A stretch of DNA of 64,000 bases from a virus (lineage: Duplodnaviria > Heunggongvirae > Uroviricota > Caudoviricetes). Both the position numbers and the translations under genes were made by a program. Positions within the stretch are counted from its first letter, which is position 1; each line of letters starts with the position of its first letter. The notes under the pieces are model-generated. The model was given only the letters and a program-made list of their open reading frames with translations. It was not told where the DNA came from and made no database searches. This document shows positions 13,515-51,302 of this stretch, in pieces. The stretch lies in the IMG/VR virus record IMGVR_UViG_3300008987_000001. One strand, given 5' to 3'.

Positions 13515-13985
13515 TTATGGGTAATGTTGATCGGTAGTATATAATGATGATACATAACTTTCATATAATTCATGTGGATCAAATATTGTGTATCTTGTTA
13601 TAACTTTTTCGATTCCAGCATTAATAAGTAACTTGGTACATTGGAAACATGGCCTTGGAATTATTTCACGCATGCCTTTAACATCCCACCCATATAAATA
13701 CATAACACACCCATATGATAGTCTCCCCGCTTGAATCAGAGCATTAGCTTCGCCGTGATTCGATTTACAAAGTAGATAATCGCTTCCTTGTGGAATATTT
13801 AACTCATCACGTAAGCACTTACCGTACACATCACAATGTATTTTACCAGTTGGTACTCCATTATAACCAGTACTCAATATATGACGATGGGAATCGACGA
13901 TAACAGCACCATAACGTCTCCTTAAACAAGTTGATTGTCGGGCACATGCTTCGGCCACTTCAAGGAAGAATTGACTATCATTCAT
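13515..13985 (-). CDS. dCMP deaminase (zinc-dependent cytidine/deoxycytidylate deaminase family)
   Basis: HGEANAL ... PCFQC zinc-ligand motifs. 156 aa. Confidence 0.7.
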   Translation of the reverse strand: MNDSQFFLEVAEACARQSTCLRRRYGAVIVDSHRHILSTGYNGVPTGKIHCDVYGKCLRDELNIPQGSDYLLCKSNHGEANALIQAGRLSYGCVMYLYGWDVKGMREIIPRPCFQCTKLLINAGIEKVITRYTIFDPHELYESYVSSLYTTDQHYP

Positions 13986-15544: not shown

Positions 15545-15832
15545 TTACTCACTTACCCCATACTTATCAAACACCCTATCTAATTTCATTAGCATCACTT
15601 GTTCAATCTCACCAGTATCTATTCCATACATAAGTTCGATCTGCTTAAGTAGTAAGTATACATCGCTTATCTCTTCAGTGATCTCGCTATTAGTGCGCTT
15701 ATATCCATTCTCATAGTTTAATATTGCTTTATTTAGTTCACCAACTTCCTCACCAAGTTTTACCACCTGATGAAGTCTGCCAAAATGTTCAATGATCTTA
15801 TACAATTTGCTGGTTACGGATGGAATAGTCAT
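15545..15832 (-). CDS. MazG-like nucleoside triphosphate pyrophosphohydrolase
   Basis: EEVGELNKAI (E-E-x-x-E-L motif) in a 95-aa all-alpha protein. Confidence 0.5.
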   Translation of the reverse strand: MTIPSVTSKLYKIIEHFGRLHQVVKLGEEVGELNKAILNYENGYKRTNSEITEEISDVYLLLKQIELMYGIDTGEIEQVMLMKLDRVFDKYGVSE

Positions 15833-16516: not shown

Positions 16517-17560
16517 TCATGTAATCGCAGTTATTACCTCACGAGCGACATGATAAAACACTTCCTTGCCATCCCACAGACCCTTAATCACCCTACTATC
16601 AACTCGAATGGATTCACCTTTACTACTAACCAATTTTGTCATACAGTGGTATCGTTCATCACGAATCATGTCACCAAGCACCTGTATAATACTTGAACAA
16701 TCACCTACCTCATGGACAATAGTAATTGACTGACCAATCAGATTCCCATTAGGATAGCCAAGCCTCATTCTCACCGCATCATTTATTGCAAGTATACTAC
16801 CTTCAAGACCCACAACAAAAATCATATCGGTCATTTTATTAAAAAGAGTGCGAAAGTTTTCACGTTCAAGATCCAACTGTTGTTGTGATGATTCAAGTGA
16901 TGAGATTGTATGCATTAAACTATCATTTGAAGTTCTCAATTCTTCTCCATGAACTTCAAGATCCATGACCTTTGCTTCTAATTCCTGCTCAACTTCGAAT
17001 CTATATAATACATGCCCGAGATGTTTTCCAAGGGTTCTTAATATATCACATACATCATCAGAGATTTCAATATCATTAAATGCCCCAATATTGATACAAC
17101 CCTTTACTGCATTATTATACAGAATTGGAACAGATATTAGTGTTTTAATACCACCGAGCAATGATGCAGTTTCCTGATACTTCTGATCATAATGCTTAAC
17201 ATAAACTGGTTTTCCAAACTGAAATAATTCACGGAGTTCCGGACGCTCTATACATATTCGATTCAACGTTTCAATAGCATGAACAGGAACAAACTTTGTT
17301 GCCACGACCTCTGCTCTACGTTCATGAATTAAGTAGATGCCCCCAATATCAAAATTGACAAAATCTATTGCTGCTTCTAGTATACCCTGAACCAACTCTT
17401 TTTGAGTCTTTGATTCATTCGCCTTGACAATAATCCCATTAAATACTTTAAGACGACGATGTTCACGAGATATAACAGAATCCTTCTCATACAATTGATG
17501 AGACAGGCTTTTTATATTATTTATTTGTTCCGCAATCGCCATCGACATTAGCAAAGACAT
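16517..17560 (-). CDS. GAF + PAS sensor-domain protein lacking an obvious output domain
   Basis: N-terminal GAF-like region and a C-terminal PAS-like segment (MTDMIFVVGLEGSILAINDAVRMRLGYPNGNLIGQSITIVHE...). Confidence 0.5.
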   Translation of the reverse strand: MSLLMSMAIAEQINNIKSLSHQLYEKDSVISREHRRLKVFNGIIVKANESKTQKELVQGILEAAIDFVNFDIGGIYLIHERRAEVVATKFVPVHAIETLNRICIERPELRELFQFGKPVYVKHYDQKYQETASLLGGIKTLISVPILYNNAVKGCINIGAFNDIEISDDVCDILRTLGKHLGHVLYRFEVEQELEAKVMDLEVHGEELRTSNDSLMHTISSLESSQQQLDLERENFRTLFNKMTDMIFVVGLEGSILAINDAVRMRLGYPNGNLIGQSITIVHEVGDCSSIIQVLGDMIRDERYHCMTKLVSSKGESIRVDSRVIKGLWDGKEVFYHVAREVITAIT

Positions 17561-18571: not shown

Positions 18572-18946
18572 CTAGTCTCTAAACATCCAAGTCATGTCGT
18601 ACGATCTGCCGTCCAAGTAATCCTCGCAGAATTGGGCTGCTTCTACTGGTTCGTAGCCTTTGCAACTGAATATGTCGATGAAGGTGCGGCCATCAAACTC
18701 ACTGAAATGCATGGTTATTGATGATGTGTGGATGAATTGCATGGCGCTATAACCGACCAGATCGCCTTCGCCAAAACGTTCAATGTAGGGCTCACCATGT
18801 GGTTCCATGTCAATATATTCAACCAGATCGAGGACAAAATCTCGAATGAATGATGCATCTGTTATCTTATCAAGATCGCAATCGTGAATGGTGAGCATTG
18901 TTGAAAGGCCCCAATGTCCTTCGTCATAAAACTGTTTGGTAATCAT
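18572..18946 (-). CDS. S-adenosylmethionine decarboxylase proenzyme (small pyruvoyl-dependent SpeH/SpeD-like class)
   Basis: LTIHDCD near the N-terminus and GYSAMQFIHTSSITMHFSEF...FIDIFSCKGY match the LAESHISIHTWPE...VDVFTCG pattern. 124 aa. Confidence 0.5.
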   Translation of the reverse strand: MITKQFYDEGHWGLSTMLTIHDCDLDKITDASFIRDFVLDLVEYIDMEPHGEPYIERFGEGDLVGYSAMQFIHTSSITMHFSEFDGRTFIDIFSCKGYEPVEAAQFCEDYLDGRSYDMTWMFRD

Positions 18947-19654: not shown

Positions 19655-22600
19655 TCAATATCGTCTGTATCCATTATTACACACCGTAAAATCTCTTGTA
19701 AATGCAAAGTAGCCTAAATTAGTTGACTTGCAAATCTTTAGGGTCATGTCCATAAGACCGCGAGGATCTGGTTTCTGCTCACCGAGGTAAATGTTGCAAA
19801 TGTTTCCACCGTCGAGTATCGGGAAGAATGCCTGCTCAATACGAATCTTTTCAGCGATTTGAATATCAGCATCTACCGGGACGTGCGTACCATTTGTATA
19901 GTAAATTGGCAAATCGCGTGATCCGGTCTCGGCATACTTTTTAATGGCAGCACGAACATCGCCTTTAACAAACTTATGAGCATCGCCATAGTTAAGTAGA
20001 TCAAGCACCGCGAACCTTTGTGCTGTCGTTTCTGCTGGAGTTCTTGAAAATGATAACTTAATATCTTGTTCGGTGGTCATTTTTTTGCAATATTTATTGA
20101 GTTCATTGCATATCTTCAATGTAAACATATGTGCTCCATTATCAGAATACAATGGTTTACCAAGCATAATCTCGCATACCTCATTCATACCAACGATTCC
20201 GATAGTGAATACGTAATCTGATAGGTCTAGGAATGGTGGAATTAATTTTCCAGTGATAGAATCTCGTTTTATATGTGTTGGAAATGGGAGCATGCCATTA
20301 TCTATACACTCGGTTATCCAACCGCGTTTAATTTTAAAAATCTCAATGGCTAATTGAATGTTTTGTTTGCACAATTCTATGAAAGTATCTATGTTACCAG
20401 TGGATTCATATGCATATCGTGGCATGTTGAGCGTTATTACCTGCGCAGAACCCATGGTAAAGTGCTTTCCATCTCTAAAGTATAGTTTGTTATCGAAATC
20501 TGGATCTCCTTCCTCGCCGCTTGAAAACGAAAATGCGCAATTCGAAGATACCATTCCTTGGGCAGTAATAAATAAATGATCTGTTACTTCTACTGGATCA
20601 TATACATCCCCATCATACGGAGATGTTTCTATCTTAACAATTGGTGATTCCCATTTACACTCTTTATTAATACACGCGAAGAAAGATTTAACTTCTTCTT
20701 GTTTATTAAGGGTTAATATATGTCTAGTTTTTCTGTTTGGTCGTTTATCTTCAACGATTGAATACTTAAAATCATATCCAAGGCTACCTGTCAATAACAA
20801 TACCCCTTCAGCTAATGGTTTTGAAATTGTATTCATTTCAATACGAAGAATTTTTGATTTTGTTCCATTCTTACGAAGGCATCCATCGCCACGATAATAT
20901 CCATTTATAAATGCCCATTTACATTTAATTGGGGCATTAAGAATGAATGTCGGAACTGTCATATCGCGACCTTTCATCGCAACACCAATTTCAATAAACC
21001 AATCATGAATCTTATTGCTGTGAATGAATACCGATGTTCCAGCACCCTTATTTACAGACTGTAATTTGGCATCATATCCAAACACATTTTTGATTATAGA
21101 AACGGTTTTATTTATTAAATCAACCTCATGTGATCCATAGCACCACATTAAATGTCTATTTGTTCCATTTGGACTGATCGTGCTACTTCCTTCTGCAGCA
21201 AATAAACCAAGTAAATAACAAAATTCAACATCATTTTGTTCTGATAAAAACTTTGGTATTTTACCATTCGTTGGTAATTCACAATTTATAAAGGCTACAT
21301 CGCCAATAGATAAATTCTTTAATTCTAATATTCCACGATTCTTTATCGGAATTTTATGATCAAATGTACCACATATTCTTCTTCCACCATCTATTTTAAT
21401 AGTATACACATATTCGTTTATATGGTGTATCATAACATGACTGAATCCATGATGTCCAGATGGTGTAACAACAACATCATCATGTTTGAGTTCTGATATT
21501 GGTATGATACGAACCATTCCATTGTCAACAATCTGAATTAACGTATCTGGTAACAACGAACACTGCATGCACGAAATGCCTTTTCCGGCCCCACGATACT
21601 GTGGAATCATGTTATCAAAATATGGGGTTCCAAATTTACTTGCTAATTGAAATGCTGAAAGATATAATTCCCGAATACTTGGGTAATCACCAGACACCCC
21701 ATGCTCATCCTCATATTCCATCTTTGCTATGTATTCGGGTTCGAACGCAATCTCTGGTTTTGGGAAGTAAAATGGTTTGCCTGCGTAATCACCTGCGAGC
21801 ATCACATCCATAAATGCCTTGAATAGCAAACGATTCTCGCGTTCGAACTCTCCATAAGTTTCTGGACCAACATTGCCCTTATAAATCGCAGGCTTGTCGT
21901 TCCACATTTCAGGTATTGAAGGCGATAACTGTACGGAACTGAAAATCTGCTGGCCGCCTCTCGAAGTAAGCATCTGCGTCATTTCAAAGATAAAACATTG
22001 CATATTCTGTTTAATTTCTTTATATGTACAATCTTTGAAATATGGTGACAAAAAGCACAGGAAATTATAGAATCCCTCGCCCCCGGCAAAGTTAACTTGC
22101 CCACTGCCTAAAGTCTTTGATGCGTGGAGTATTGCAACTTCTGGGCGCATTGCCGGTCCTGCAACTGATGTGTGCTCTCCTGTACCATCTCCTGTGAATC
22201 CATAATAAAATACATACCGTAGATCCCAATCAGCACAAAAGTATCTACTTGTGATGTATTCTAAATCATGAATGTGTAAATTACCATTAAGGTGTGCTTC
22301 AGATAAATGCTCTGGGAGCATTAAAAGTGCTTGTTCCTTTGCCAGTTGATCGGCTTTTCTTTTGTGTACGGTTTCTGGGGAACGTTGTAAATTGGCGTTA
22401 TCTCCCTTTCCACCACCAATATCAGTCATTCTCGCATCATACACTGGCATCCCAACACGAGTATATTTGCGCCGACATTCATTCATATCACGTTCTAAAA
22501 ACTTGGTATTAACAAACTCCCTAATAAGTGGGCCTGTTACTGGATCGATTTTTAGAACACTTAATGTATTATATACATCATCAACTATATCTTCAATTGC

Positions 22601-22696
22601 TTTTCCGGTGCACCCAGTTTCTTTACGCACAGAATCGATAACTTTATTTCTATCAAATGATTCAATAGATCCATCATCCTTCCTTACTCTTACCAA
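19655..22696 (-). CDS. Ribonucleotide reductase catalytic body with N-terminal ATP cone, interrupted by an intein; lacks its own glycyl-radical C-terminus (see 22923-23228)
   Basis: ATP-cone motif VRKDDGSIESFDRNKVIDSV. Extein is 672 aa after removing the 341-aa intein. A glutaredoxin and an NrdD-type GRD are encoded directly upstream on the same strand. Confidence 0.6.
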   Translation of the reverse strand: MVRVRKDDGSIESFDRNKVIDSVRKETGCTGKAIEDIVDDVYNTLSVLKIDPVTGPLIREFVNTKFLERDMNECRRKYTRVGMPVYDARMTDIGGGKGDNANLQRSPETVHKRKADQLAKEQALLMLPEHLSEAHLNGNLHIHDLEYITSRYFCADWDLRYVFYYGFTGDGTGEHTSVAGPAMRPEVAILHASKTLGSGQVNFAGGEGFYNFLCFLSPYFKDCTYKEIKQNMQCFIFEMTQMLTSRGGQQIFSSVQLSPSIPEMWNDKPAIYKGNVGPETYGEFERENRLLFKAFMDVMLAGDYAGKPFYFPKPEIAFEPEYIAKMEYEDEHGVSGDYPSIRELYLSAFQLASKFGTPYFDNMIPQYRGAGKGISCMQCSLLPDTLIQIVDNGMVRIIPISELKHDDVVVTPSGHHGFSHVMIHHINEYVYTIKIDGGRRICGTFDHKIPIKNRGILELKNLSIGDVAFINCELPTNGKIPKFLSEQNDVEFCYLLGLFAAEGSSTISPNGTNRHLMWCYGSHEVDLINKTVSIIKNVFGYDAKLQSVNKGAGTSVFIHSNKIHDWFIEIGVAMKGRDMTVPTFILNAPIKCKWAFINGYYRGDGCLRKNGTKSKILRIEMNTISKPLAEGVLLLTGSLGYDFKYSIVEDKRPNRKTRHILTLNKQEEVKSFFACINKECKWESPIVKIETSPYDGDVYDPVEVTDHLFITAQGMVSSNCAFSFSSGEEGDPDFDNKLYFRDGKHFTMGSAQVITLNMPRYAYESTGNIDTFIELCKQNIQLAIEIFKIKRGWITECIDNGMLPFPTHIKRDSITGKLIPPFLDLSDYVFTIGIVGMNEVCEIMLGKPLYSDNGAHMFTLKICNELNKYCKKMTTEQDIKLSFSRTPAETTAQRFAVLDLLNYGDAHKFVKGDVRAAIKKYAETGSRDLPIYYTNGTHVPVDADIQIAEKIRIEQAFFPILDGGNICNIYLGEQKPDPRGLMDMTLKICKSTNLGYFAFTRDFTVCNNGYRRY
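20540..21562 (-). mobile_element. Intein with LAGLIDADG homing-endonuclease domain inside the RNR gene (aa 379-719)
   Basis: N-terminal Cys (CSLLPDTLIQIVDNG block A). LAGLIDADG motifs FCYLLGLFAAEGS and KWAFINGYYRGDGC. C-terminal GMVSSN followed by +1 Cys. Confidence 0.6.
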
Positions 22697-22911
22697 ATTC
22701 CCAACTCCTTGATAGCACCAGACTTGTCATAGTATTCCCCATCAATATCAACGATTGGTGCTTCTACTAATGTTACAGATTTCATCAATAATTCCATTCT
22801 AACATCATCATCCTCAAGATCGCGTGTTATATATTTTATGTCTTTCGATTTTAATAAATTCTTTAAATCGTCACAGTTTGGACAAATTGGTAATGTATAT
22901 ATAATAATCAT
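22690..22911 (-). CDS. Glutaredoxin / NrdH-like redoxin
   Basis: CPNC active-site motif at residues 10-13. About 73 aa thioredoxin fold with PIVDIDGEYY. Confidence 0.55.
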   Translation of the reverse strand: MIIIYTLPICPNCDDLKNLLKSKDIKYITRDLEDDDVRMELLMKSVTLVEAPIVDIDGEYYDKSGAIKELGIW

Positions 22912-22922
22912 ACTATTTCCAT

Positions 22923-23228
22923 TTATAATGAATCATAACGAACGCGGCGTTTTAACTCTTCAACCTTAGCAGAATTCCAAGATCCATTTCCTACTGGACT
23001 ATAGTATCCTGTTATTCGTGATAATACCTGCACATCATGCGCACCACATTCCGGGCACATAAATTCACCACATTCCTCACAGACTTTTATACCATCAACA
23101 ACACCATGACTACATGAACCTGTATCTTGTGAACACATCGTTTCTGGAACCCGTTTACATTCTGGACAACAACCATCTATCAGGTCAGTGTCTGCTAAAA
23201 TAAGTTTACATGTCTGACACTTGAACAT
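22923..23228 (-). CDS. Stand-alone NrdD-type Zn-ribbon + glycyl-radical domain (probable ATG at 23228; the ORF track starts at a TTG at 23243)
   Basis: CxxC pairs (CQTC, CCPEC, CEEC, CPECGAHD) followed by VLSRITGYYSPVGNGSWNSAKVEELKRRVRY. The same layout as the C-terminus of anaerobic RNR as I remember it (RRVCGYLGSPDARPFNAGKQEEVKRRVKH). Confidence 0.6.
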   Translation of the reverse strand: MFKCQTCKLILADTDLIDGCCPECKRVPETMCSQDTGSCSHGVVDGIKVCEECGEFMCPECGAHDVQVLSRITGYYSPVGNGSWNSAKVEELKRRVRYDSL

Positions 23229-23250
23229 ATCATACAGGTGCAATTTGCTA

Positions 23251-23395: not shown

Positions 23396-24172
23396 TCATG
23401 TCTCCTTATCGATCATTGGGGCTACTAAGTATGCTAGGTTTAACCATGTGCATTCATATTCCACTTTAAATGGGGTATCATTACCAAGTATGATGTTACA
23501 TCCACTGAAATGCTTTGGGGCTGTAAAGATATCAGTAATGTAGTCTCCATGGATTCTGGTGCTATAGGATCCATCGACTTCTACTTCTACATGGTATGCC
23601 CGGTTATTATCGGTTGCATCATTTATAGTGAGGGTGTGATCTTGTAAGGTGATATCGTATTTGTTTTTGGAATTAACCATAGTGAGGATCTTTTTAATGT
23701 GTTCTGATGTGAGCGGTATGATTACATGTTCCCATTTTACTTCAGGGCCTTCGCGATCACGACGGTCCACATTAGGATCTGATAATGACGCGCAGTTGTA
23801 TACAAGTCCATCATCATGAAATACCAAGGAATTGTTGTTGTGATATATCTGCACCACATCAGATTTAATCCCTTTGATGTTTACTAGGTCGATTGCAATG
23901 GATAGGGGTGTTGCAATGGTTGTTTTATAATTCAGGACAATGAATGCAACATTTGCTGTATCAGTTGAATGTATGATAATTCCATCTTCAGTAAAGTGTA
24001 TTTTTGTAGATGATATGATACCCAGTGCATTGATAAATGATTGGAATTGTGAGAGTTCACAAATGAGTGTACCAAGTGATTTCATGTAAGTAATGTACGT
24101 TGCACTAGTATATTTATTTATTCGACAATTCCAACCATATGATATCTTCCTTGGTAGGCTTACCATACCCAC
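23396..24172 (-). CDS. PCNA-like DNA sliding clamp
   Basis: 258 aa with the two-domain pattern (IHFTEDGIIIHSTDTANVAFIVL...; second half ...ITLQDHTLTINDATDNNRAYHVEVEV...). Confidence 0.55.
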   Translation of the reverse strand: MGMVSLPRKISYGWNCRINKYTSATYITYMKSLGTLICELSQFQSFINALGIISSTKIHFTEDGIIIHSTDTANVAFIVLNYKTTIATPLSIAIDLVNIKGIKSDVVQIYHNNNSLVFHDDGLVYNCASLSDPNVDRRDREGPEVKWEHVIIPLTSEHIKKILTMVNSKNKYDITLQDHTLTINDATDNNRAYHVEVEVDGSYSTRIHGDYITDIFTAPKHFSGCNIILGNDTPFKVEYECTWLNLAYLVAPMIDKET

Positions 24173-24727
24173 AGTGAAGGCAGTATGATATACCCAACTT
24201 AAAATCTGGAAACATATATTGATGACAGCGTGGGCACTTCAACTTTGCCATAGAGTTATATACTTTATGGCTCTTGTATAAAAAAGTATAGGGTTACTTT
24301 ATTAGATAGTTAGTAAGGCTTGCAATCCTTCTTCGTCAAATATATTTGTGGATTCAACTGTAATCATGAGATCATAAGTGACACCTGTTGCATAGATACA
24401 TCCTTCAGCAACATGAGGATATGTAGCATCATAGTCATTCATGAGTTCAACAATTGACTGTTTAATTTCATTAAGATCCCGAGCAAAAAAGTGATCAGTA
24501 AAGGAATGATCTTCACCAATAACTGTATAATTTATACGATAGACACCAATCAAAACATCACCAACAATATATATAATACCATTATTAATCACTCACCACT
24601 AATACTTTTGATGGGCCGACTACTGCCACTTGTATCGTGTTGTATGGCTCTATACATTTACATTCAACTCCTTCTCTACTAATCAATGCTTCAACCAAAT
24701 CATACGTCGAAACTGCTGTCAGATCCA

Positions 24728-25450
24728 TTATTGTAACCACCTCTTTAGATAATTACCATCACGCTTGTAGTATATATGGGCATCAACATTGATGTCTTCG
24801 TAAAAGCCGACCTCACATTGGCACCTTGCTGCTATTGCAGTATGAAGGAAATGTATAGCATAGATGTTAGCACCCATACCCAGTAACACATCACGTGATC
24901 GCCAGAGTGTAAACATATTCAATTTACCATCAACTATCTCACATTTGAGCCACTGGAGACAGGGAGGACTTCTGATGTTTGTATAATTCTCATCATATGG
25001 GCGCCATGTAATTGCACAGGCACGGCGAGTTGATTTGGAAGCATTAAGTCGCTTTACTATCTCATCAATCTGATCAATTTTATACTGACGAGTATAATAT
25101 CGCTTGACCCCATCAGATGAGATACGCTCTTCATTACGTAAGACTTCATATTCACACAGTCGTTCAAAATAGGTGTAAACGAAGTCATCTGACGTATTTT
25201 TAACTTCCCGAGTATCTTGTCCTAGTATTTCATCAACATAACTGTCAAGTGATTGTATGCCCATTGGATAATAATCTGCTAACTTGGCAATGTCTCTGGA
25301 TGGGTCAGAAACGTGCAATACTAATGTGTCCTTTGATCTCCAGACCAATTCTTCATCTTCGGTTTCAAACTCGCGGTGATTCCAAATAATGTATTGAATG
25401 GCTTGTTTATATGCTTCAGCCAATGTAGGTGTCTCAATCCCTTTAACCAT
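24728..25450 (-). CDS. Thymidylate synthase (ThyA) superfamily enzyme: thymidylate synthase or dUMP/dCMP hydroxymethyltransferase
   Basis: SPPCLQW (active-site Cys) and RSRDVLLGMGANIYA align with ThyA LPPCH ... QRSxDxxLGxPFNIASY. Only 240 aa and lacks the canonical ThyA N-terminal LLWFL region. Confidence 0.55.
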   Translation of the reverse strand: MVKGIETPTLAEAYKQAIQYIIWNHREFETEDEELVWRSKDTLVLHVSDPSRDIAKLADYYPMGIQSLDSYVDEILGQDTREVKNTSDDFVYTYFERLCEYEVLRNEERISSDGVKRYYTRQYKIDQIDEIVKRLNASKSTRRACAITWRPYDENYTNIRSPPCLQWLKCEIVDGKLNMFTLWRSRDVLLGMGANIYAIHFLHTAIAARCQCEVGFYEDINVDAHIYYKRDGNYLKRWLQ

Positions 25451-26260: not shown

Positions 26261-26776
26261 TTAATTATATAGATTTAACCCTATACAATAGCAATCTTCC
26301 CAACTATCAGGAATATCCGTTGTATGATATGCTTTTGTTACTTCAGTATATTCGCATTCTAAACATGCCCATTCACACAATGCTCTCATTCCATCTGGAT
26401 AGAATCTATAACAATCAACCGGATATTTATGTTCTTCCCATACAGCGGGTGCAACAATACAAAAACACCCATTGCATTTAAGAACACGTTGAATTTCTCT
26501 GAATGTTAACCATGGATATTTTGCATGTTCAATCACGCTTGCACATATTACAATGTCGATGCTCGATGTTTCAATCTCATTCCAGTGATATGGATCCTTA
26601 ACTACTATATCTACATTTGGTCCATCTTCAATATCCATCCCAATATACTTACAATTTGTAAATAAATGTTTATGACTTCCATTTATATCGCACGAACCTA
26701 TTTCAAGGACCACATCATTATCACCCACATAATCCTTTGCGAAGTTACTAACTATGTCATATGAACTCTGATGCAT
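26261..26776 (-). CDS. SAM-dependent methyltransferase (class I)
   Basis: VLEIGSCDINGS motif I. Confidence 0.45.
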   Translation of the reverse strand: MHQSSYDIVSNFAKDYVGDNDVVLEIGSCDINGSHKHLFTNCKYIGMDIEDGPNVDIVVKDPYHWNEIETSSIDIVICASVIEHAKYPWLTFREIQRVLKCNGCFCIVAPAVWEEHKYPVDCYRFYPDGMRALCEWACLECEYTEVTKAYHTTDIPDSWEDCYCIGLNLYN

Positions 26777-26807
26777 TAATATATAATGAGGATTAAGTGA
26801 TATATAA

Positions 26808-27410
26808 ATGTATTTATGTGGTTTTTGTGGAAATGAAATAGATTTGCATCACAGAGATCAATTATGTTCATGTGGTGTCCCATTTAGACAAGGAATAATA
26901 TACAAACATGTGATAAATTATAACAATCTATCTATATACAATACATCATCAACTGATATTATACATCAAAAATTTAAAGATCTCCAACAATACACTTGCT
27001 CAGAATATTATGATGATGCAACAGATCATGAAGTTATGCATCAAGATTTATGTAACTTAACATTCGAAAATGAATCATTCGACATGGTAATTACACAAGA
27101 TATTATCGAACATGTAATTGATCCATTTAAAGCACTCAATGAAATAAATAGAGTATTGAGACCTAATGGATTTCATTTATGGACAATTCCAATTGACGAA
27201 GATATTGAAACAGCATCATGTACATATGAACTTTATCATGGAGATCCATTAAGGGAATGTGGTATAAAGGTATATACACTATTTGGATTTGATATAATTG
27301 ATATGATACCAAACACATCAATAATTGAAAAATATATTATATTTGAAAAAGTAGAAAATTTAAATTACAATTTATATATTTTAAAAACTATAAAAACTCC
27401 TTGTGAATGA
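26808..27410 (+). CDS. SAM-dependent methyltransferase (Methyltransf_11/23-like)
   Basis: DMVITQDIIEHVIDPFKALNEINRVLRPNGFHLWTIP. Confidence 0.45.
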   Translation: MYLCGFCGNEIDLHHRDQLCSCGVPFRQGIIYKHVINYNNLSIYNTSSTDIIHQKFKDLQQYTCSEYYDDATDHEVMHQDLCNLTFENESFDMVITQDIIEHVIDPFKALNEINRVLRPNGFHLWTIPIDEDIETASCTYELYHGDPLRECGIKVYTLFGFDIIDMIPNTSIIEKYIIFEKVENLNYNLYILKTIKTPCE

Positions 27411-28401
27411 TGTCCTGGCATACTCCATCCAATGCTCTATTTATTGCATCATTGCGACAAAACTGTGGGCAGTCATTGTTGGGTACAGTATTAAACACTT
27501 CATACATTTGCTCACTTTTTAGCACATCAGTAATACTTTGCTCATTTAGATTACCAATGTGATATGCTTTGTTTTGTCTATGGTGGATACATGCCCACAT
27601 TTGATTATCTGCAGTAATGACCGTGTTAAAGTACATGCCATGACACCGTGTATAGGGACGTTCAATCTCACCTACATGATCATACTTGTGGGTTGATGCA
27701 CGGATATTCAGTTTTGGGAATAAATCTTGTCCTTGCTTTATATATTCACTTACATCATTACATTCGCCAGTGAATGGTCGTAATTGAGCAAAATCAACAT
27801 GTAGACTATCAGCACGCTCAAAGAAATCCATGATGCCTGATAAAGTAGATTCACCAGTCAAGTATCCAAGACCAACAGATGTAATAGATTCGCTCACTGC
27901 ACGTAGTTGCATTAACTCATCAACATTATCAATTACATGCCAAAACTCTTCTTCCTCCATGCCATGGGTTAACTTATACATTGCAGGTGTTCCAGCATCT
28001 AATGATACTCTAAAGTATGTACAGCAATCAAGTATAGCACATCGAACATAATCATTGCACATAGCAAGTCCATTAGAGTTAAGTCCAATACTGATACCTG
28101 CATTCTTGAACATGTATAGTGCTTTGACAAAGTGAGGACTCATCATTGGCTCTCCCCCACCACTAATAACCACTGACTGAACATTCAAATTGCTCATTTG
28201 ATCAACAATTGAAGTGATTTGTTCAAGAGTTAACTCTGCGCCATTCTCCTTTACTCCCACACATTTTGGACATCGATTGTTACACTTGTTAGTTAAATCT
28301 AACTCGAATGATATGAGGGTTTCATGACCATGCACATAATTGTGGATTTTATCCTGATACTGTAGGATTTTCTCATTGGCATTGAAGTTGTTTAATTTCA
28401 T
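27388..28401 (-). CDS. Radical-SAM enzyme (probably sugar-modifying; not NrdG-like)
   Basis: CNNRCPKC = CxxxCxxC at residues 39-46. 337 aa, embedded in the glycan cluster. Confidence 0.55.
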   Translation of the reverse strand: MKLNNFNANEKILQYQDKIHNYVHGHETLISFELDLTNKCNNRCPKCVGVKENGAELTLEQITSIVDQMSNLNVQSVVISGGGEPMMSPHFVKALYMFKNAGISIGLNSNGLAMCNDYVRCAILDCCTYFRVSLDAGTPAMYKLTHGMEEEEFWHVIDNVDELMQLRAVSESITSVGLGYLTGESTLSGIMDFFERADSLHVDFAQLRPFTGECNDVSEYIKQGQDLFPKLNIRASTHKYDHVGEIERPYTRCHGMYFNTVITADNQMWACIHHRQNKAYHIGNLNEQSITDVLKSEQMYEVFNTVPNNDCPQFCRNDAINRALDGVCQDIIHKEFL

Positions 28402-28934
28402 GAAAAATACACCGCATTGTCAAAATTTGGCCATGCTTTATCCTTTTCACTTAATTGCGGGGATGTTTCAAACTCAATACATGATAAGGGATTCACTCCA
28501 CGCTCATGAGTTGGCGCATACACATTATCCACCTTATATATAATCTCGGTATCATCCTCAAGAATATGAATGCCATGAGCAAATCCTCTTGGAACCCATA
28601 GAAGGGGTCCATCAGCAGTTAGTTTATATGAGCCGATTTCACCAAATGTTTTGGAATATTGTCGCATGTCCATGAAGTAATCAGTAAGGGAGCCACGTGT
28701 GCAACGAACCAACTTCCCCTGATCATATGGGTAGCGCTGATAATGCATACCACGGAATACACCTGCTTGTGAACGTGAATGATTTTCCTGGATGAAGTCA
28801 AGTCGAATTCCATTATTTAGGAATTCCTTCTCGACATATGATTCCATGAACCACCCACGATCATCACCAATCCGCTTTGGATAAATGATCTTAATATCAG
28901 GCAACTCTTCATGCCTATAAAAAGTGAAAGCCAT
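28398..28934 (-). CDS. rmlC: dTDP-4-dehydrorhamnose 3,5-epimerase (RmlC-type cupin)
   Basis: FRGMHYQ ... LWVPRGFAHGI cupin motifs. 178 aa. Confidence 0.6.
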   Translation of the reverse strand: MAFTFYRHEELPDIKIIYPKRIGDDRGWFMESYVEKEFLNNGIRLDFIQENHSRSQAGVFRGMHYQRYPYDQGKLVRCTRGSLTDYFMDMRQYSKTFGEIGSYKLTADGPLLWVPRGFAHGIHILEDDTEIIYKVDNVYAPTHERGVNPLSCIEFETSPQLSEKDKAWPNFDNAVYFS

Positions 28935-28955
28935 TATATAGTATATAAGTTAGAT

Positions 28956-30101
28956 CTATATAATTCTTCGTATCCAGTTAAGTCTTGTAACAATCTGTTT
29001 ATTTAATACTCGTTGATTAAAATTATTTAGAATATGCTCTTTACATTTATTTCCAAGCATTCTGGCGTATTGTTTATCATTCACCAATGATAGCATGTGC
29101 ATTGAAGCATGACCAATTATTGGATCTGCCCATAAAGATACTGGGTTATATAAACATTGTGATGTCATTGTTTTTATCATATTATAATCGACAAGCAATG
29201 CACATGAACTATCAGTAAATTCCATGGATCCTCCATAAGATGTGACAATAACAGGTTTCCCAAGATACATGGCTTCCATCATTCCAATACCCAGACCTTC
29301 AGATCGATGTAATGATACATAACAATCAGATGCATTTATAAGACCTAAAAATTCTGATTTATCTACAACACCTCGTATATACTTTATATTATTGTAACGC
29401 TTTATGTAATGTATAAATGGTGCTTCTTCAAATGCGAACATTTCACCAAACATTGATTTTATCACTAATTGCACATCTGCTCTATTCCCAAAAGCACTTA
29501 TGAACGAATCAACTACAGCATAAGGATTCTTTCTATCAATAGATCCATAATAATCAAAAGAATAAAAGAATGTAAATTTATTTGAATCCAGTCCATATTT
29601 TTTGTATATTGTGGGTGGTGAGCAAACATCAATTATATTTGTCTCTGGTGCATATGCAAGTTTATGTATTGGGATCCCACGGTGATCAAACTTTTTGAAT
29701 ACATCATAACAGAATTGTGAAAAGCACCATATCTCATCTACATAATTATATGCATCGGTCCATGGGAAATAATCTTCAAGTTCCCAGAACCATACTCCGA
29801 TTGTATACTCATCCTCAGAAATTTGATGGTGATTCACTATACTTATAGCAGATTCAGCCCCGCCAAGAATAACATTTATAGGATAATGATTTGGTTCAAT
29901 AAATGTTAATGTTGATTTAAATGGAGTTACGGTATGTGGAATATCATTATCAATGAGAGATTTATGAAGCACCCTTGCAATTTCCCCCATTCCATTATCA
30001 TGAAGAACTCCAGCGTATAAATCAACTCCGAATGAATTCCATTTATGTTTATTAAAAATAGAATTAGAAATTACAGAAATTGATTTATTTAAATGTAGCA
30101 T
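28956..30101 (-). CDS. Glycosyltransferase, GT-B fold (GT4-like)
   Basis: EGLGIGMMEAMYLGKPVIVTSYGGSMEF (E-x7-E motif region). Confidence 0.5.
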   Translation of the reverse strand: MLHLNKSISVISNSIFNKHKWNSFGVDLYAGVLHDNGMGEIARVLHKSLIDNDIPHTVTPFKSTLTFIEPNHYPINVILGGAESAISIVNHHQISEDEYTIGVWFWELEDYFPWTDAYNYVDEIWCFSQFCYDVFKKFDHRGIPIHKLAYAPETNIIDVCSPPTIYKKYGLDSNKFTFFYSFDYYGSIDRKNPYAVVDSFISAFGNRADVQLVIKSMFGEMFAFEEAPFIHYIKRYNNIKYIRGVVDKSEFLGLINASDCYVSLHRSEGLGIGMMEAMYLGKPVIVTSYGGSMEFTDSSCALLVDYNMIKTMTSQCLYNPVSLWADPIIGHASMHMLSLVNDKQYARMLGNKCKEHILNNFNQRVLNKQIVTRLNWIRRII

Positions 30102-31080
30102 TTATGAATCCACCCCACTTATTAATAAAATAACAACGTTCATTGTATTCTATGAGTTGCTTTTCAAGCGTTGTGTCATATCCACGGGTCTTTGATTCGT
30201 AATGATATAACTTGGCATATGGCGTATATAAAACCTTATAATTTGCCTGATTCACTTTCATGCACAGATCAATATCATTATATGCAATTGGTAAATTATC
30301 ATCCATTCCACCAAGATCCAAATATAATTCACGCTTTATTGCAACACATGCTCCAGTAACCGCTGGATATATCATTGGCTCATTTGTCCGAGGATAAATG
30401 TCACACTTATGAGAATTTACATGCATAAATCCACCAATCACTTCACTATATACAACCCCACAGTGCTGTATAGTATGGTCAGCAAATAACAATTTAGCAC
30501 CAGTCATTCCAATAGTTGGATCGTCTATCATTGGACCAACCAATTGTTCAATCCATGTAGGTTCAATAATTTCAGTATCATTATTCAGCATGATAATATA
30601 TTCACCAGAACAATGAGGTATCACGGCATTATGAATTGCTGCATAATTATACTCCAATGGATAATCAAATACCAGTATGTTATATGGGCAGTTATCAAGC
30701 CAATCAACGGTATATTCATCACTCTGATTATTCACCACTATAATTTCATAATTGTTATGGGTTGATGACGTTACTATAGATCCAATACACTTGTTTAGAT
30801 CTTTAAGATGATCTCTTGTTGGAATAACAATAGTGACTAGTGTATCATTTAGATCATATGATGGTACATTTTCAAATTTATACAACTCGCAATTCATAGG
30901 TATACTTCTAACTTTATATGCAATGTGATTCGAGATGTCAATCCATTCTTGTTTTTTAAATAATGGTCCAAGTAATCCTAATACAAATCCTCCAATTAAC
31001 ATTTTATTTTTCTGTGAAAATATATAATGTGTAAAGTACAATGACAATACTCCGTTAATATAATTCAACTTACTTATCAT
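30085..31080 (-). CDS. Glycosyltransferase family 2 (GT-A), N-terminal TM
   Basis: VTIVIPTRDHLKDLNKCIGSI ... IIMLNNDTEII (DxD). Confidence 0.5.
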   Translation of the reverse strand: MISKLNYINGVLSLYFTHYIFSQKNKMLIGGFVLGLLGPLFKKQEWIDISNHIAYKVRSIPMNCELYKFENVPSYDLNDTLVTIVIPTRDHLKDLNKCIGSIVTSSTHNNYEIIVVNNQSDEYTVDWLDNCPYNILVFDYPLEYNYAAIHNAVIPHCSGEYIIMLNNDTEIIEPTWIEQLVGPMIDDPTIGMTGAKLLFADHTIQHCGVVYSEVIGGFMHVNSHKCDIYPRTNEPMIYPAVTGACVAIKRELYLDLGGMDDNLPIAYNDIDLCMKVNQANYKVLYTPYAKLYHYESKTRGYDTTLEKQLIEYNERCYFINKWGGFINATFK

Positions 31081-31921
31081 GATTTATATAGTCCTTTAAT
31101 GCTCGTTCCCAATATGGTGTATATATAATATGCGATGCCATTGATGTATTACATTGTCCATTCGGTGACTCAAATGGTTCAATTTCTATAGATAAATTTG
31201 CTAATTCTTTTATTTTACAAGCAAACTCATACCAGGAACAAGATCCGGCATTATTTAAATGAAATGTTCCTCTAAAATTATTACGTACAAGTAAATTCAA
31301 CGCACCAGTTGCATCCCGACAATACGTTGGACTCATAATAATATTATCTGGTATCGAAAGATCATCTATAGCATGCAACACTTTCTCTATGAAATTTGGA
31401 CCCTTGTTACTTGATCCTTTGAGACCGAAGAGACTGGACACTCTCCCAATAATATAATTGTCAGTGACATCCATTATGGCTTGTTCACCACACACCTTAC
31501 TCCTCCCATATTCATTGAGAGGTGCTACAGGATCGTCCTCATAATATGGAGAGCCTTTCCTTCCATCAAATACATAGTCAGTGGAGAAGTGAATAAATGT
31601 AGCATCAATATCATTACAAGTGTATGCCATGGACTTTGGCACCTCACAGTTCATTAGGTGTGCTAACCGTGGGTTATTCTCACACCCATCAACATCATGA
31701 TATGCTGTACAATTAATCACAATGGATGGCCCCACTTCACTTATATATTTATATACAACTTCAGCATCCCTGACATCAAGATCGTGGTGACTTGGAGCAA
31801 TTGCATCAAATGCCTTGACAATCTCACACCCCAATTGTCCCGAACCACCAAATACCAAAACACGTGACATTATATAATAGTTAGTTTTCGTATATATAAA
31901 TCTAATTGTTATACAACCCAC
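31070..31921 (-). CDS. rmlD: dTDP-4-dehydrorhamnose reductase (RmlD-type short-chain reductase)
   Basis: VLVFGGSGQLG Rossmann motif. Family-typical length 283 aa. Confidence 0.55.
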   Translation of the reverse strand: MGCITIRFIYTKTNYYIMSRVLVFGGSGQLGCEIVKAFDAIAPSHHDLDVRDAEVVYKYISEVGPSIVINCTAYHDVDGCENNPRLAHLMNCEVPKSMAYTCNDIDATFIHFSTDYVFDGRKGSPYYEDDPVAPLNEYGRSKVCGEQAIMDVTDNYIIGRVSSLFGLKGSSNKGPNFIEKVLHAIDDLSIPDNIIMSPTYCRDATGALNLLVRNNFRGTFHLNNAGSCSWYEFACKIKELANLSIEIEPFESPNGQCNTSMASHIIYTPYWERALKDYINHDK

Positions 31922-33907: not shown

Positions 33908-34769
33908 TAAGTTATATATACTGTCAATACCAATGTTATGATCTAATTGGTGACAAGATACTTTTCAGCATCAACATTTTTCATTGGGCAGGTCACCAGG
34001 CCCAAAACAATTATGTTTAATAACATCCAAACCAAATTTTAAACTTAATATACATCCATAACAATGAACTGATCATTTTGTGCATATGCTTTCTGCACAT
34101 TTACCACGTATAAAAAAGTGGTTGCCTTAACAACAGTCATGGTCACAGAATATCATCGAGCCCTAATACTACATTTATCCGGTTTCTCAACTTGATAAGG
34201 TCATGTTTACTGATTTGAAAATTATAAGTATCGAGCCTAACGAAATATACACGTTATGAGTCTTCAGTTTCAATACTAAATACAGCACAATCAGCAGTAT
34301 TCTGGGGCCACGGATCTTCTACTAATTTAATCATTGTATCACCAGCATTCATAATTACTAATATCTTCTTCTGCTTTGCATCCTTCGCAGCATATAATTA
34401 CAACCACTCCAATACCAGTGAACCATACTTTGTAATATATCTTACCACAATGTCGTGCTTTAAATTCATCAGCACGTTGCTGTTCTATATCATTTAAATT
34501 TAATCCAGTTGACATAACATACTCCTCACGTTGTAATATTAATTAGATTTTGGATCATTTCAGCCTTTTCCCATTCATGACATAAGAATGGTGGCACTTC
34601 TGCTTCCATAAATACACATATGACTGTATTTGGTTTATCTCCCCATTCAAGGAAGTATAAACATCGCTCATCACAGTATTGTTCCATGATAAATAGTGCG
34701 TGGAAGAGTCGAACTTCCCTCAATTGGGCCAAAACCAATTATGGTTACCGATACACTAACGCACTACAG

Positions 34770-34800
34770 TCCCAATTGAAGGACTCGAACCTTCGAACCT
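34770..34800 (-). ncRNA. tRNA-like 3' fragment (T arm GAAGG-TTCGAGT-CCTTC + acceptor 3' strand) without an identifiable 5' half
   Basis: Reverse complement reads GGTTCGAAGGTTCGAGTCCTTCAATTGGGA. Confidence 0.3.
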
Positions 34801-35185
34801 ATAATGCTCGTGGGGGTTTTGATCATTGCATTATAGCACATGGTTTCACAGGGTAATACAGTGAGTAATTCACCATACACACTCCATGTGGTCAGGCCAT
34901 CTGACTTAAACTGGGTTGGTGATTTGATACACTGGTGATTTAGGTGAAACCCTTGGTGGGAATTTAACCCACATACTTGCGTCTATCACCAGTTCTGTGA
35001 CGTTGCTGCAGTATTCTTTCACATGCTTAATTACAAGGGCATGTGGATTGTCAATGTGATTCCTTGTCTATGCTCCTACGGGTGGAATCAACCCTGCGAG
35101 TCACAGCCATAGACCGCCGTATCCCGCCGAGTCGTTTCACGGGATAATTACACACTCCAACTGAATGGACTAGCGACAGTGTGGA

Positions 35186-35266
35186 TAATCGGTGCAGGAA
35201 TCGAACCTGCGACCCAATTCGGGATGACCTTTTCAGTCACGACTTTACCAATTCATCCAACCGATT
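35186..35266 (-). tRNA. tRNA-like gene, 81 nt, class-II architecture (perfect 7-bp acceptor stem AATCGGT/ACCGATT, T arm GCAGG-TTCGATT-CCTGC, variable-arm hairpin CCC-GAATT-GGG); anticodon not confidently assigned
   Basis: Hand folding of the reverse complement. Followed by a TCCA trailer. Confidence 0.5.
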
Positions 35267-35527
35267 ATTGCATTTTTTATCTGTCACTACCTAGGATAAC
35301 AGTCCTGTTATGCTTCAGGATAACCGACGGTTGGAATTGAACCAACTTTGCACCCTACTTGTCTCATCGATTACATATTATGGTGTGACCCATAAACATG
35401 TCAGACCTATCGTGGTTAGGCCAAGTTTGGTTTCGACCAACACCGTTGATCCCCTGTTTTCCTTCAGGGAGGCTTCTGGAGGTTGTTTTCACCTCTTTTA
35501 AGTTTGTTTATACCAGCCACGATCTGG

Positions 35528-50657: not shown

Positions 50658-51224
50658 TTATAGGTTACTTATGATTCTTGAGATGTTACTGTGTATGGGG
50701 GTTGAGGTGGTGTCTATCATGAGGACATTGAGATTGAATAGTTTAAATATTAGATCGTAACGGGATTGGATGCATTGGATCTGGCTGATTGATAGGTGGT
50801 GTTCTTCACTTCTTTCTGATAATCTGTGATGTATAATTGATGGTTCGGCATATACATAGATTACGAGGGCTGGTGGAAACACTGCTAACTGACTACTGTA
50901 TACTTGGTTTATTGCGCAGAATGGTGGCCAGTGATGTTTGGTTTCAATCTCTATTGATTGGTATACAAGGCTACATATGAAAGATCTGTCGCTTATGAGA
51001 TGGGTTGTGAGTGGAAATTCAATGTCTTTATATAATAAATATCTATCGTGGGCAAATAGGTCAATCTGTTTAAATACATCATTGGTTTCTTTGATTTGCT
51101 TGATGAAGGTATCATTGTGGGGTTCTTTGATGTAAGTGGCTGGATATTGTTGTTTTAGGTGTTCTAGGATAGTAGATTTTCCTGAACCATCACACCCACA
51201 AATGTTAATAATGCATGGATCCAT
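50658..51224 (-). CDS. Thymidylate (dTMP)/deoxynucleoside kinase-like P-loop kinase; probable start at the internal Met (51224). The ORF track extends to 51296 across a TATA-like box.
   Basis: MDPCIINICGCDGSGKST Walker A typical of thymidylate kinases. Confidence 0.5.
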   Translation of the reverse strand: MDPCIINICGCDGSGKSTILEHLKQQYPATYIKEPHNDTFIKQIKETNDVFKQIDLFAHDRYLLYKDIEFPLTTHLISDRSFICSLVYQSIEIETKHHWPPFCAINQVYSSQLAVFPPALVIYVYAEPSIIHHRLSERSEEHHLSISQIQCIQSRYDLIFKLFNLNVLMIDTTSTPIHSNISRIISNL

Positions 51225-51302
51225 TAGTAATGGTTGGGTGTTAATGTATATATAAGGTTGGGTAAAAATAGATGTGGTTAATATATCCCCTGCCAAGGAT
51301 TA

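Follow-up and report, generated by a model that had tools for sequence, protein, structure and literature searches.

Compact thymidylate synthase (TS) architectures are found in housekeeping ThyA, dCMP hydroxymethylases and flavin-dependent hydroxylases, so that compactness alone predicts nothing about the reaction catalyzed by a given homologue. A useful first filter for TS homologues is provided by three residues, equivalent to Leu143, Asp169 and Asn177 of the E. coli enzyme. The residue at position 143 correlates with the formation of a hydroxymethyl or a methyl product, an acidic side chain (Asp or Glu) being present in all characterized hydroxymethylases (i.e., T4 gp42, SPO1-like enzymes, PaMx11 gp51 and MilA), and the D169N substitution occurs in every 5-hydroxy-dCMP synthase tested, these hydroxylases combining D169N with a bound flavin (PMC13326640). 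The dUMP hydroxymethylases (SPO1 gp29-like enzymes and PaMx11 gp51) contain 348–383 aa including a long C-terminal extension, and carry Asp at positions 143 and 169, Asn at position 177 and another Asn directly after the catalytic Cys. In PaMx11, the gp51 gene belongs to a cluster with gp46 and gp47, which are hypermodification enzymes (PMC11472151). The 5-hydroxy-dCMP synthases and T4 gp42 are compact proteins of ~240 aa with Asp at position 177, the dCMP signature, and Glu or Asp at position 143; their genes are located near PolB and beside glycosyltransferase and sugar-activation genes.

The methanogen-type ThyA (TIGR03283) are also short (200–257 aa), with an N-terminal β-strand followed by a helix, a TEDxE loop at the site of the classical Arg21 loop, a polar residue at position 143, Asp at 169, Asn at 177 and no C-terminal tail. 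Archaeal ThyA have received hardly any biochemical characterization (PMC9931769, PMC9012536), and we found no literature on MJ0757, TIGR03283 or "methanogen-type thymidylate synthase". Here we compare these systems with a ThyA homologue encoded within a 64,000-nucleotide stretch of DNA, hereafter the window, from a large uncultured virus whose replication machinery is of archaeal style. Our analysis favors, with a probability of roughly 75%, a virus-borne compact archaeal ("methanogen")-type thymidylate synthase which would form ordinary dTMP and no exotic base.

A virus-encoded ThyA homologue of the methanogen type

The gene (24728..25450, minus strand) encodes a protein of 240 aa. It starts with ATG, preceded 7–12 nt upstream by a GAGGAG ribosome-binding site, and its TAA stop codon overlaps the ATG of a downstream 47-aa ORF (TAATG). 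In agreement with the original prediction, the protein is a member of the ThyA superfamily, with a Pfam PF00303 (Thymidylat_synt) match of 60.6 bits for a gathering cut-off of 24.3 (E=1.8e-16). This match is confined to aa 102–229, in the C-terminal half, and the protein had accordingly been thought to lack the N-terminal folate-binding region of canonical ThyA. However, aa 5–232 align to positions 3–198 of the 201 positions of the TIGR03283 profile (E=1.2e-44, 152.2 bits), and the AlphaFold model (pLDDT 93) adopts a TS fold that superposes on complete TS-fold proteins; the N-terminal half is thus divergent, not missing. The whole architecture of TIGR03283 is present, i.e., a compact protein collinear over its full length with the N-terminal strand and helix, the TEDxE loop, the PPCLQ motif and no counterpart of the classical C-terminal tail of ~45 residues that closes over the folate. 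The size of 240 aa hence reflects the normal build of the methanogen-type family, whose cellular Methanomicrobiales members contain 224–257 aa. The compactness of T4 and SPO1 hydroxymethylases had been put forward as a parallel, and it holds for T4 gp42 (246 aa) but not for the SPO1-like homologue (383 aa) or PaMx11 gp51 (348 aa).

Regarding the assignment to TIGR03283, the score of 152.2 bits falls short of the equivalog cut-off of 174.55 bits, which speaks against a dTMP-forming enzyme. The related proteins P0014 and P0018 score 153 and 147 bits, the protein of virus PhiF1 187 bits and cellular Methanomicrobiales proteins 193–210 bits. This shortfall would suit a dUMP hydroxymethylase (5-hmdUMP synthase), in which water would quench the exocyclic methylene, and 5-hmdU would enter DNA and perhaps be glycosylated by the adjacent glycosyltransferases. 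The same reading, which we consider unlikely, could draw on the missing tail, since in classical TS it closes the active site for hydride transfer. Yet the absence of the tail, like a polar residue at position 143, is common to the methanogen housekeeping ThyA, which must make dTMP, and the viral protein has no equivalent of the ~130-aa C-terminal extension of the known dUMP hydroxymethylases.

In a neighbor-joining tree whose deep nodes have bootstrap values below 60%, the viral family (100% bootstrap), joined by P0018 (93%), falls inside the short methanogen-type group, whereas the SPO1 and PaMx11 dUMP hydroxymethylases (in a clade of their own, 98%), T4 gp42 and the classical TS are all placed outside. 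Clustering with bona fide ThyA, together with unmodified virion DNA, had been named beforehand as the observation that would argue against a hydroxymethylase. The protein does group with the housekeeping ThyA of archaea, apart from gp42 and gp29, but as this ThyA type has hardly been studied biochemically, the hydroxymethylase option is only weakened.

The closest cellular relatives are Methanomicrobiales ThyA, with 30–37% identity over the full length. Since the species-genome scan relied on a single pattern that skewed matches towards Methanomicrobiales, this cellular distribution is no census. Peptide patterns of the close family found no relative in 185,579 species genomes, and megablast of a 20-kb segment surrounding the gene gave zero matches among cultured phages. 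One cluster of the protein at 90% identity is present on 121 contigs, and relatives occur in the JGI samples 3300025689, 3300044712 and 3300037067. Within the 64-kb window, neither a second TS-superfamily gene nor a ThyX motif was found.

The viral enzyme is encoded by a virus and does not come from a methanogen. In a motif comparison that took in 12 cellular ThyA sequences, it shares with the Methanomicrobiales proteins the motifs TEDxE, FxYTYxxRL, TRRAxAITW, PPCLQ, RSxD, GANxYA and AHIY. Among 77 columns conserved in both the viral and the cellular families, 49 are identical, including every known catalytic residue, and 28 differ, as illustrated by WRSRD and LLGMG in the viral proteins versus FRSND and LSALG in methanogens. 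At the positions of L172/G173 and D205, the viral form is that of classical TS, from which methanogen ThyA differ.

Active-site residues and the reaction product

Our alignment reproduces the published states of positions 143, 169 and 177 for all five reference enzymes. Cys164, within SPPCLQW, aligns to E. coli C146, R142/R143 to R126/R127, R184-S185-R186-D187 to R166-D169, and H225/Y227 to H207/Y209, while N195, in the segment G193-A194-N195-I196-Y197-A198, corresponds to N177; Tyr94 is a further key residue. The catalytic Cys and the RSRD…GANIYA segment highlighted in the original prediction are therefore confirmed. The Cys, the Arg pair, RSxD and His-x-Tyr are all invariant in the family, and across 17 family members and 34 wider homologues Asn195 never varies, Asp being found at this position in T4 gp42 and RB69 gp48. 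This invariance supports the earlier proposal of a substrate that is probably of the dUMP type. Like the classical ThyA of E. coli and L. casei, the protein has the D-x-x-L-G motif in addition to the residues above; it differs from them by Ser in place of Leu143, Leu in place of His147 and Trp in place of Gln165.

The positions of L143, D169 and N177 are occupied by S161, D187 and N195, invariant in the viral family, and cellular methanogen ThyA belong to the same class (S, N or H at 143, D at 169 and N at 177). No acidic residue at position 143, no D169N and no N177D occur in the viral family. Asp or Glu is present at position 143 in the compact homologues PhiF1, P0026 and P0039. As in dUMP hydroxymethylases, Asn is thus found at 177 and Asp at 169, and Asn195 would suit a hydroxymethylase acting on dUMP. 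The small polar Ser161, in place of Leu, does not obviously enforce water exclusion, which also favors hydroxymethylation. By contrast, characterized hydroxymethylases possess Asp or Glu at position 143, and the dUMP enzymes an Asn after the catalytic Cys where the viral protein has Leu; the invariant Ser is instead shared with some cellular methanogen ThyA. It is worth recording that the rule concerning L143 was established outside the methanogen-type ThyA, and that Ser is neither bulky nor water-excluding, an observation that counts against a dTMP-forming enzyme.

The resemblance to flavin-dependent C5 hydroxylases has also to be weighed. The 5-hydroxy-dCMP synthases and T4 gp42 share the compact size of the viral protein. 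The hhalign alignment to RB69 gp48 runs end to end at 99% probability (E=3e-18), and the N-terminal strand and C-terminal ending correspond. An enzyme akin to RB69 gp48, DLP3 gp80 or HY126 (9iqc) but acting on dUMP would yield a 5-hydroxyuracil that could be glycosylated. Such a hydroxylase is very unlikely here, given that Asp187 is invariant where D169N is diagnostic and that neither N177D nor L143E is present. Moreover, the classical D-x-x-L-G pterin motif is intact, as opposed to N-C-A-V-V in RB69 gp48, and identity to the latter (~21%) is lower than to methanogen ThyA.

Structure comparison gives no separation of methylases from hydroxymethylases or hydroxylases. The best structural match to the model is 9iqc, and the Foldseek TM-score normalized to the query peaks with MilA (0.77). 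The latter could suggest a substrate outside the DNA-precursor pathway, i.e., a ribonucleotide (UMP or CMP) as for MilA, or an inactive relic, and both seem extremely improbable. In classical TS, the counterparts of His225 and Tyr227 (His207 and Tyr209) bind the deoxyribose 3'-OH, and these residues are conserved. The catalytic residues are all invariant although members of the family are down to 60% identical, which speaks against decay, and the conserved genomic context is one of DNA replication and dNTP synthesis.

In the N-terminal half, Glu31 is aligned where E. coli has Arg21, and a β-hairpin predicted around aa 101–125 is an addition that most compact homologues do not have. The alignment of this half differs between two MAFFT runs, making the mapping of E. 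coli Glu58 and Trp80 unreliable, and Glu74 can be proposed only tentatively as the equivalent of Glu58.

Gene neighborhood and nucleotide supply

The ThyA gene is translationally coupled to the 47-aa ORF (24585..24728, minus strand), which matches phrog_5765, of unknown function (E=1.4e-9), and also follows the ThyA gene in L001–L004. The other genes given below with coordinates are likewise on the minus strand. A PCNA-like sliding clamp (23396..24172) has Archaeoglobus fulgidus PCNA (1rwz) as best PDB sequence match, over its full length (E=8e-4), followed by other archaeal PCNAs. A gene of 220–231 aa occupies the position of the clamp in L001–L004, L036, L039 and L041, and as the clamp is called at 231 aa in relatives, its real start is probably internal to the ORF. 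Beyond lies an anaerobic ribonucleotide reductase, NrdD, in two pieces. Its C-terminal zinc-ribbon/glycyl-radical part, with the motif RITGYY, is a separate ORF (22923..23243; PF13597 positions 508–562 of 562, E=6.5e-14), and a glutaredoxin (22690..22911; PF00462, E=3.9e-10) separates it from the NrdD body (19655..22696). NrdD is split likewise in L001, L036 and L037. The body was identified by BLASTP against the 676-aa NrdD of L001, and it contains an intein-like insertion of ~340 aa (aa 380–719), its aa 1–379 and 720–1013 aligning to the contiguous residues 1–676.

A dCMP deaminase, a MazG enzyme and a dTMP kinase had been described as adjacent to the ThyA gene. All three types of gene are present but distant: the dCMP deaminase (13515..13985; PF00383, E=5.1e-15) lies 10.7 kb away, the 95-aa MazG-like nucleoside triphosphate pyrophosphohydrolase (15545..15832; phrog_2245, E=1.9e-19, with an EExGE...EExxD motif) 8.9 kb away, and the thymidylate-kinase-like dNMP kinase (50658..51296; PF02223, E=8.9e-13; PF01712, E=8.6e-8) 25 kb away. 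The true neighbors are the PCNA-like clamp, the split NrdD with its glutaredoxin, and a glycosyltransferase/dTDP-sugar cluster. The clamp and the ribonucleotide reductase are conserved beside the gene in relatives down to ~38% identity, in which an AdoMet decarboxylase, a dCMP or dCTP deaminase and an ERCC4 nuclease are found further along. The stretch corresponding to the deaminase holds a dCMP deaminase in L036 and L041, and a gene of the dCTP deaminase/dUTPase family in L037.

The MazG-like enzyme and the kinase were initially taken to fit a pathway for a modified base. Together with the deaminase, they do make up the set of accessory genes known from hmU phages (PMC8989533), and viruses with the known dUMP hydroxymethylases likewise encode a dCMP deaminase and a kinase for dNMPs. 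However, thymidylate synthase, Tmk, Dcd and MazG are equally common in tailed viruses of archaea, as their usual genes for nucleotide supply (PMC8651126). The choice initially offered between a thymidylate synthase and a hydroxymethylase thus retains its superfamily and its dUMP-type substrate, but the arguments drawn from compactness and from the gene set no longer favor the hydroxymethylase.

The sugar cluster lies beside the ThyA gene and between it and PolB. Its position is reminiscent of the T4 β-gt gene, which adjoins gene 42, as well as of the RB69 locus, and is for this reason compatible with both a hydroxymethylase and a hydroxylase. Nevertheless, this island is a variable insert, which differs between L001 and L002 despite identical ThyA proteins and which L041 lacks in the interval from PolB to ThyA. 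Furthermore, Pfam searches of ~70 ORFs of the 64-kb window revealed no HMUDK, aGPT-Pplase or TET/JBP family member, and with Pfam and PHROGs no hypermodification gene (5-HMUDK, aGPT-Pplase or dTTP-excluding enzymes) was found among the scanned ORFs of these 64 kb of a ~133-kb contig. The window yielded no recognizable family of DNA glycosyltransferases. Its glycosyltransferases and its Tmk-like and MazG-like proteins have no detectable similarity to genes in the stretches from gene 41 to gene 45 of RB69 and T4, which argues neither way. That the cluster beside the gene resembles the modification clusters of RB69 and T4 is, for its part, an observation to be held against a dTMP-forming enzyme. 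Overall, it is quite improbable that the enzyme makes 5-hydroxymethyl-dUMP or 5-hydroxy-dUMP, subsequently decorated in DNA by the glycosyltransferase/dTDP-deoxysugar/methyltransferase island. Were it the case, a virus using an archaeal-type replisome would carry a glycosylated substitute for thymidine, and the methanogen-type ThyA group would include a branch of hydroxymethylases or hydroxylases.

Proposed reaction and significance

For the favored dTMP-forming thymidylate synthase, we propose that Cys164 would attack C6 of dUMP, the nucleotide being gripped by Arg184, Ser185, His225 and Tyr227 together with Arg142' and Arg143' of the partner subunit in a presumed dimer, while Asn195 would read the O4/N3 face of the uracil. 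A methylene-tetrahydropterin, either methylene-THF or an archaeal analogue, would be the one-carbon donor, contacted by Asp187-x-x-Leu190-Gly191, and reduction would convert the exocyclic methylene into the methyl group of dTMP. No DHFR-like gene for the recycling of an oxidized pterin was found in the 64-kb window, which weighs against this reading.

This reaction would take place in a dNTP-supply line serving a genome of 63% A+T. The ribonucleotide reductase would provide deoxynucleotides, the dCMP deaminase dUMP, and the ThyA protein dTMP, which the Tmk-like kinase would phosphorylate to dTDP, with the MazG-like enzyme possibly policing the nucleotide pool. If so, the gene would belong to routine viral nucleotide metabolism. 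It would make a modest addition to what is known of this family, namely a compact archaeal ThyA in large, widespread and uncultured viruses that also encode PolB, PCNA and an ERCC4 nuclease (contigs of 130–136 kb). Moreover, since the viral enzyme retains the classical D-x-x-L-G motif that is altered in methanogens, it could be a tractable and possibly folate-using representative with which to assay this type of ThyA.

A probable compact ThyA of the methanogen type

The protein under study is predicted, with a probability of about 0.75, to be a compact ThyA of archaeal type, synthesizing dTMP as part of a dNTP-supply module encoded by the virus. Its gene was found where originally predicted, at 24728-25450 on the minus strand, with an ATG start and a GAGGAG ribosome-binding site; it encodes 240 aa, and its stop codon and the start codon of a downstream 47-aa ORF overlap. 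The motifs quoted earlier are also present and match catalytic residues of the E. coli enzyme: Cys164 (SPPCLQW) aligns to C146, R184-S185-R186-D187 (RSRD) to R166-D169, Asn195 (GANIYA) to N177, His225/Tyr227 to H207/Y209 and Arg142/Arg143 to R126/R127. All are unchanged in 17/17 family members (divergence down to 60% identity).

Four PHROG 'thymidylate synthase' families match the protein, its top family match being NCBIfam TIGR03283, methanogen-type thymidylate synthase (E=1.2e-44). Since this alignment covers aa 5-232 (profile positions 3-198 of 201), the N-terminal half, previously described as lacking, is not missing; it is the divergent form typical of the family, and the earlier description stands only insofar as the Pfam Thymidylat_synt match (E=1.8e-16) is confined to aa 102-229. 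The AlphaFold model (34 homologues, pLDDT 93) superposes on complete TS-fold proteins. Unlike classical ThyA, the protein has no C-terminal tail of ~45 residues, and its Glu31 aligns at Arg21 of the E. coli enzyme. Regarding its supposed likeness to compact hydroxymethylases, this holds for T4 gp42 (246 aa) but not for an SPO1-like gp29 homologue (383 aa) or PaMx11 gp51 (348 aa).

The nearest cellular relatives found are Methanomicrobiales ThyAs (30-37% identity over the full length), which have 224-257 aa and share its motif set. Against TIGR03283 the window protein scores 152 bits, below the curated 174.55, its relatives P0014, P0018 and P0019 141-153, three cellular Methanomicrobiales enzymes 193-210 and methanogen virus PhiF1 187. 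Among 5.8 billion proteins, a word-indexed search returned only 16 clusters at >=60% identity, all metagenomic; the window protein is a virus-borne addition to a known ThyA type, members of some of these clusters being already named 'thymidylate synthase (methanogen type)' by JGI. When 1.8 billion representatives were searched exhaustively with a profile, the family formed one 50%-identity cluster, followed by P0018 and then by a broad set of proteins, mostly of 200-260 aa; none of these aligned to the first 78 residues of E. coli ThyA. In a neighbour-joining tree (100 bootstraps, deep nodes weak), the window family (100%) and P0018 (93%) fall inside a compact group alongside cellular methanogen enzymes, with dUMP hydroxymethylases (98%), T4 gp42 and E. 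coli ThyA outside it. Between the viral family and the cellular ThyAs, 49 of 77 jointly conserved columns are identical, all catalytic positions among them; in the 28 that differ, L190/G191 and D223 agree with classical TS (L172/G173, D205) rather than with the methanogen enzymes, which hints at a folate-like cofactor.

Residues determining the product

The residue rules of the superfamily (E. coli numbering) have been summarized and extended in a 2026 study, in which Asn at 177 denotes dUMP and Asp dCMP, a bulky hydrophobic residue at 143 correlates with a methyl product and Asp/Glu with a hydroxymethyl one, and D169N marks newly found flavin-dependent 5-hydroxy-dCMP synthases (PMC13326640). 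Our alignment reproduced the published 143/169/177 states of every reference enzyme: L/D/N in E. coli ThyA, D/D/D in T4 gp42, D/D/N in SPO1-like and PaMx11 enzymes and E/N/D in RB69 gp48. The window family is invariantly S/D/N (S161/D187/N195), and cellular Methanomicrobiales ThyAs carry S, N or H at 143 with D169 and N177; judged by sequence, the triad of the window protein is the housekeeping archaeal ThyA pattern. The Ser assignment is robust, because the HMMER alignment to L. casei TS has no gap between position 143 and the catalytic Cys.

It is improbable that the window protein is a hydroxymethylase: the acidic residue at 143 present in every characterized non-methylating homologue is absent from the whole window family, although the compact clade has no assayed enzyme in the literature (PMC9931769, PMC9012536), the protein falls just below the TIGR03283 equivalog cut-off and Ser at 143 is not proven to exclude water. 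A flavin-dependent hydroxylase is very improbable, D169N being absent from the protein. Regarding fold, the best structural match of the AlphaFold model is the 5-hydroxy-dCMP synthase structure 9iqc, followed by MilA (21.4), classical TS (17.6-18.7) and T4 dCMP hydroxymethylase (17.2), and the alignment of the compact-family profile to RB69 gp48, also a 5-hydroxy-dCMP synthase, spans the full length (99% probability, E=3e-18). This compact architecture is common to enzymes of three chemistries and the fold therefore cannot decide the product, so that the assignment of dTMP synthesis is based on the residue triad and context.

Glu or Asp at 143 with D169 and N177, the dUMP hydroxymethylase triad, occurs in ORF59 of Methanobacterium virus PhiF1 (L007, 4986-5618), in proteins P0024, P0026, P0029, P0030 and P0039 and in others, which score above or near the cut-off of the methanogen-type ThyA model. 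Either the L143 rule would not hold for compact enzymes, or 5-hmdUMP would be made by some 'methanogen-type ThyAs', among them that of PhiF1, a cultured virus.

Gene neighbourhood and nucleotide supply

The dCMP deaminase (13515-13985), MazG-like NTPase (15545-15832) and Tmk-like kinase (50658-51296) genes, thought to adjoin ThyA, proved to be 9-25 kb off. In archaeal tailed viruses, the combination of thymidylate synthase, Tmk, deaminase and MazG is a common set for nucleotide supply (PMC8651126). One side of ThyA carries a PCNA-like clamp (23396-24172; best PDB match A. fulgidus PCNA), a split anaerobic ribonucleotide reductase (RNR) and glutaredoxin; the other, two methyltransferases, a radical-SAM/SPASM enzyme, RmlC, GT1 and GT2 glycosyltransferases and RmlD, with PolB beyond. 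ThyA, the PCNA-like gene and an RNR (NrdD or class II) recur in the relatives' loci L001-L004, L036, L037, L039 and L041 (ThyA identity down to ~38%), the PCNA-like gene being absent from the L037 gene calls. AdoMet decarboxylase and dCMP/dCTP deaminase recur further along where the fetched stretch reaches (L036, L037, L041); L001 and L002 reach the decarboxylase only, and neither gene is seen in L039. L036, L037 and L039 also have an ERCC4 nuclease. No second TS-family gene or ThyX motif was found in the 64-kb window, and no 5-HMUDK, aGPT-Pplase or TET/JBP by Pfam (~70 window ORFs) or PHROGs (ten ORFs).

The AdoMet-decarboxylase-family protein (116-126 aa), conserved near RNR and deaminase genes in the relatives examined (window 18572-18946, minus; L001 18895-19269; L036 15658-16038; L041 14089-14439), may serve polyamine synthesis or another pyruvoyl-dependent decarboxylation.

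The PolB-ThyA interval holds a hypervariable sugar island (window 26261-31921; L001 3632-9420; L002 4122-8293; L036 4779-9195; L037 3074-9448) with RmlC, RmlD (and RmlA in relatives), GT1/GT2, radical-SAM/SPASM and several SAM methyltransferase genes. Its content differs between L001 and L002 despite identical ThyA proteins, and it is missing between PolB and ThyA in L041; it thus acts as a variable island and not as a ThyA partner. Its target may be a glycan on virion proteins, the host surface or DNA.

The anaerobic RNR is split and permuted, an arrangement kept across relatives (window 19655-23243, minus; L001 12222-14775; L036 12510-15168; L037 11320-13869). The zinc ribbon and glycyl-radical motif (RITGYY) of the NrdD C-terminus are encoded by a separate ORF of 99-143 aa upstream of the NrdD body, which stops just short of that domain. 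In L001, L036 and the window, glutaredoxin separates the two pieces; the 65-aa ORF in its position in L037 has no Pfam match, and no NrdG-like activase was recognized among the window ORFs scanned. Window NrdD (19655-22696, minus) has an insertion of ~340 aa (aa 380-719), absent from the 676-aa L001 orthologue, that is intein-like because it starts with Cys and ends in SSN followed by Cys. In L003 and L004 it is instead the RNA ligase that contains an intein (Intein_splicing and LAGLIDADG). Both have a class II (B12-type) RNR at the position of the window NrdD, so that the RNR class has been exchanged among very closely related viruses. Downstream of this RNR an IS605 OrfB/TnpB (Cas12f-like) gene is inserted (L003 14804-15922; L004 14655-15773).

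Replication genes and the nature of the virus

Other window genes include an NAD salvage pair on the minus strand, NAMPT (60220-61599) and an NMNAT-like cytidylyltransferase-domain protein (58111-59127), adjoined by a DUF5662 protein (61596-62123, minus). Also on this strand are a GAF-PAS sensor-like protein kept in relatives (16517-17560), an SPFH/Band 7 protein (11251-12159) and a phage-type Dam N6-adenine methyltransferase (41148-41615); an RNase H-like (RVT_3) protein lies on the plus strand (44974-45384). Three tRNA genes were called (34693-35609, minus), Gln-TTG, Leu-CAA and a 'tRNA-Phe' of 86 nt whose AAA anticodon is unusual and which may be a miscall, intron-containing or otherwise atypical.

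The replication set, comprising the PCNA-like clamp, the family B polymerase (36595-38994; best cultured matches haloarchaeal tailed viruses, 25% identity) and the ERCC4 (XPF/Hef-type) nuclease (12496-13185), is archaeal-style. The exact ThyA protein occurs on a 133-kb JGI contig and relatives on contigs of 135-136 kb. Together, these features suggest a large uncultured archaeal tailed virus, the genome of which (63% A+T) would be served by the proposed dNTP-supply module.
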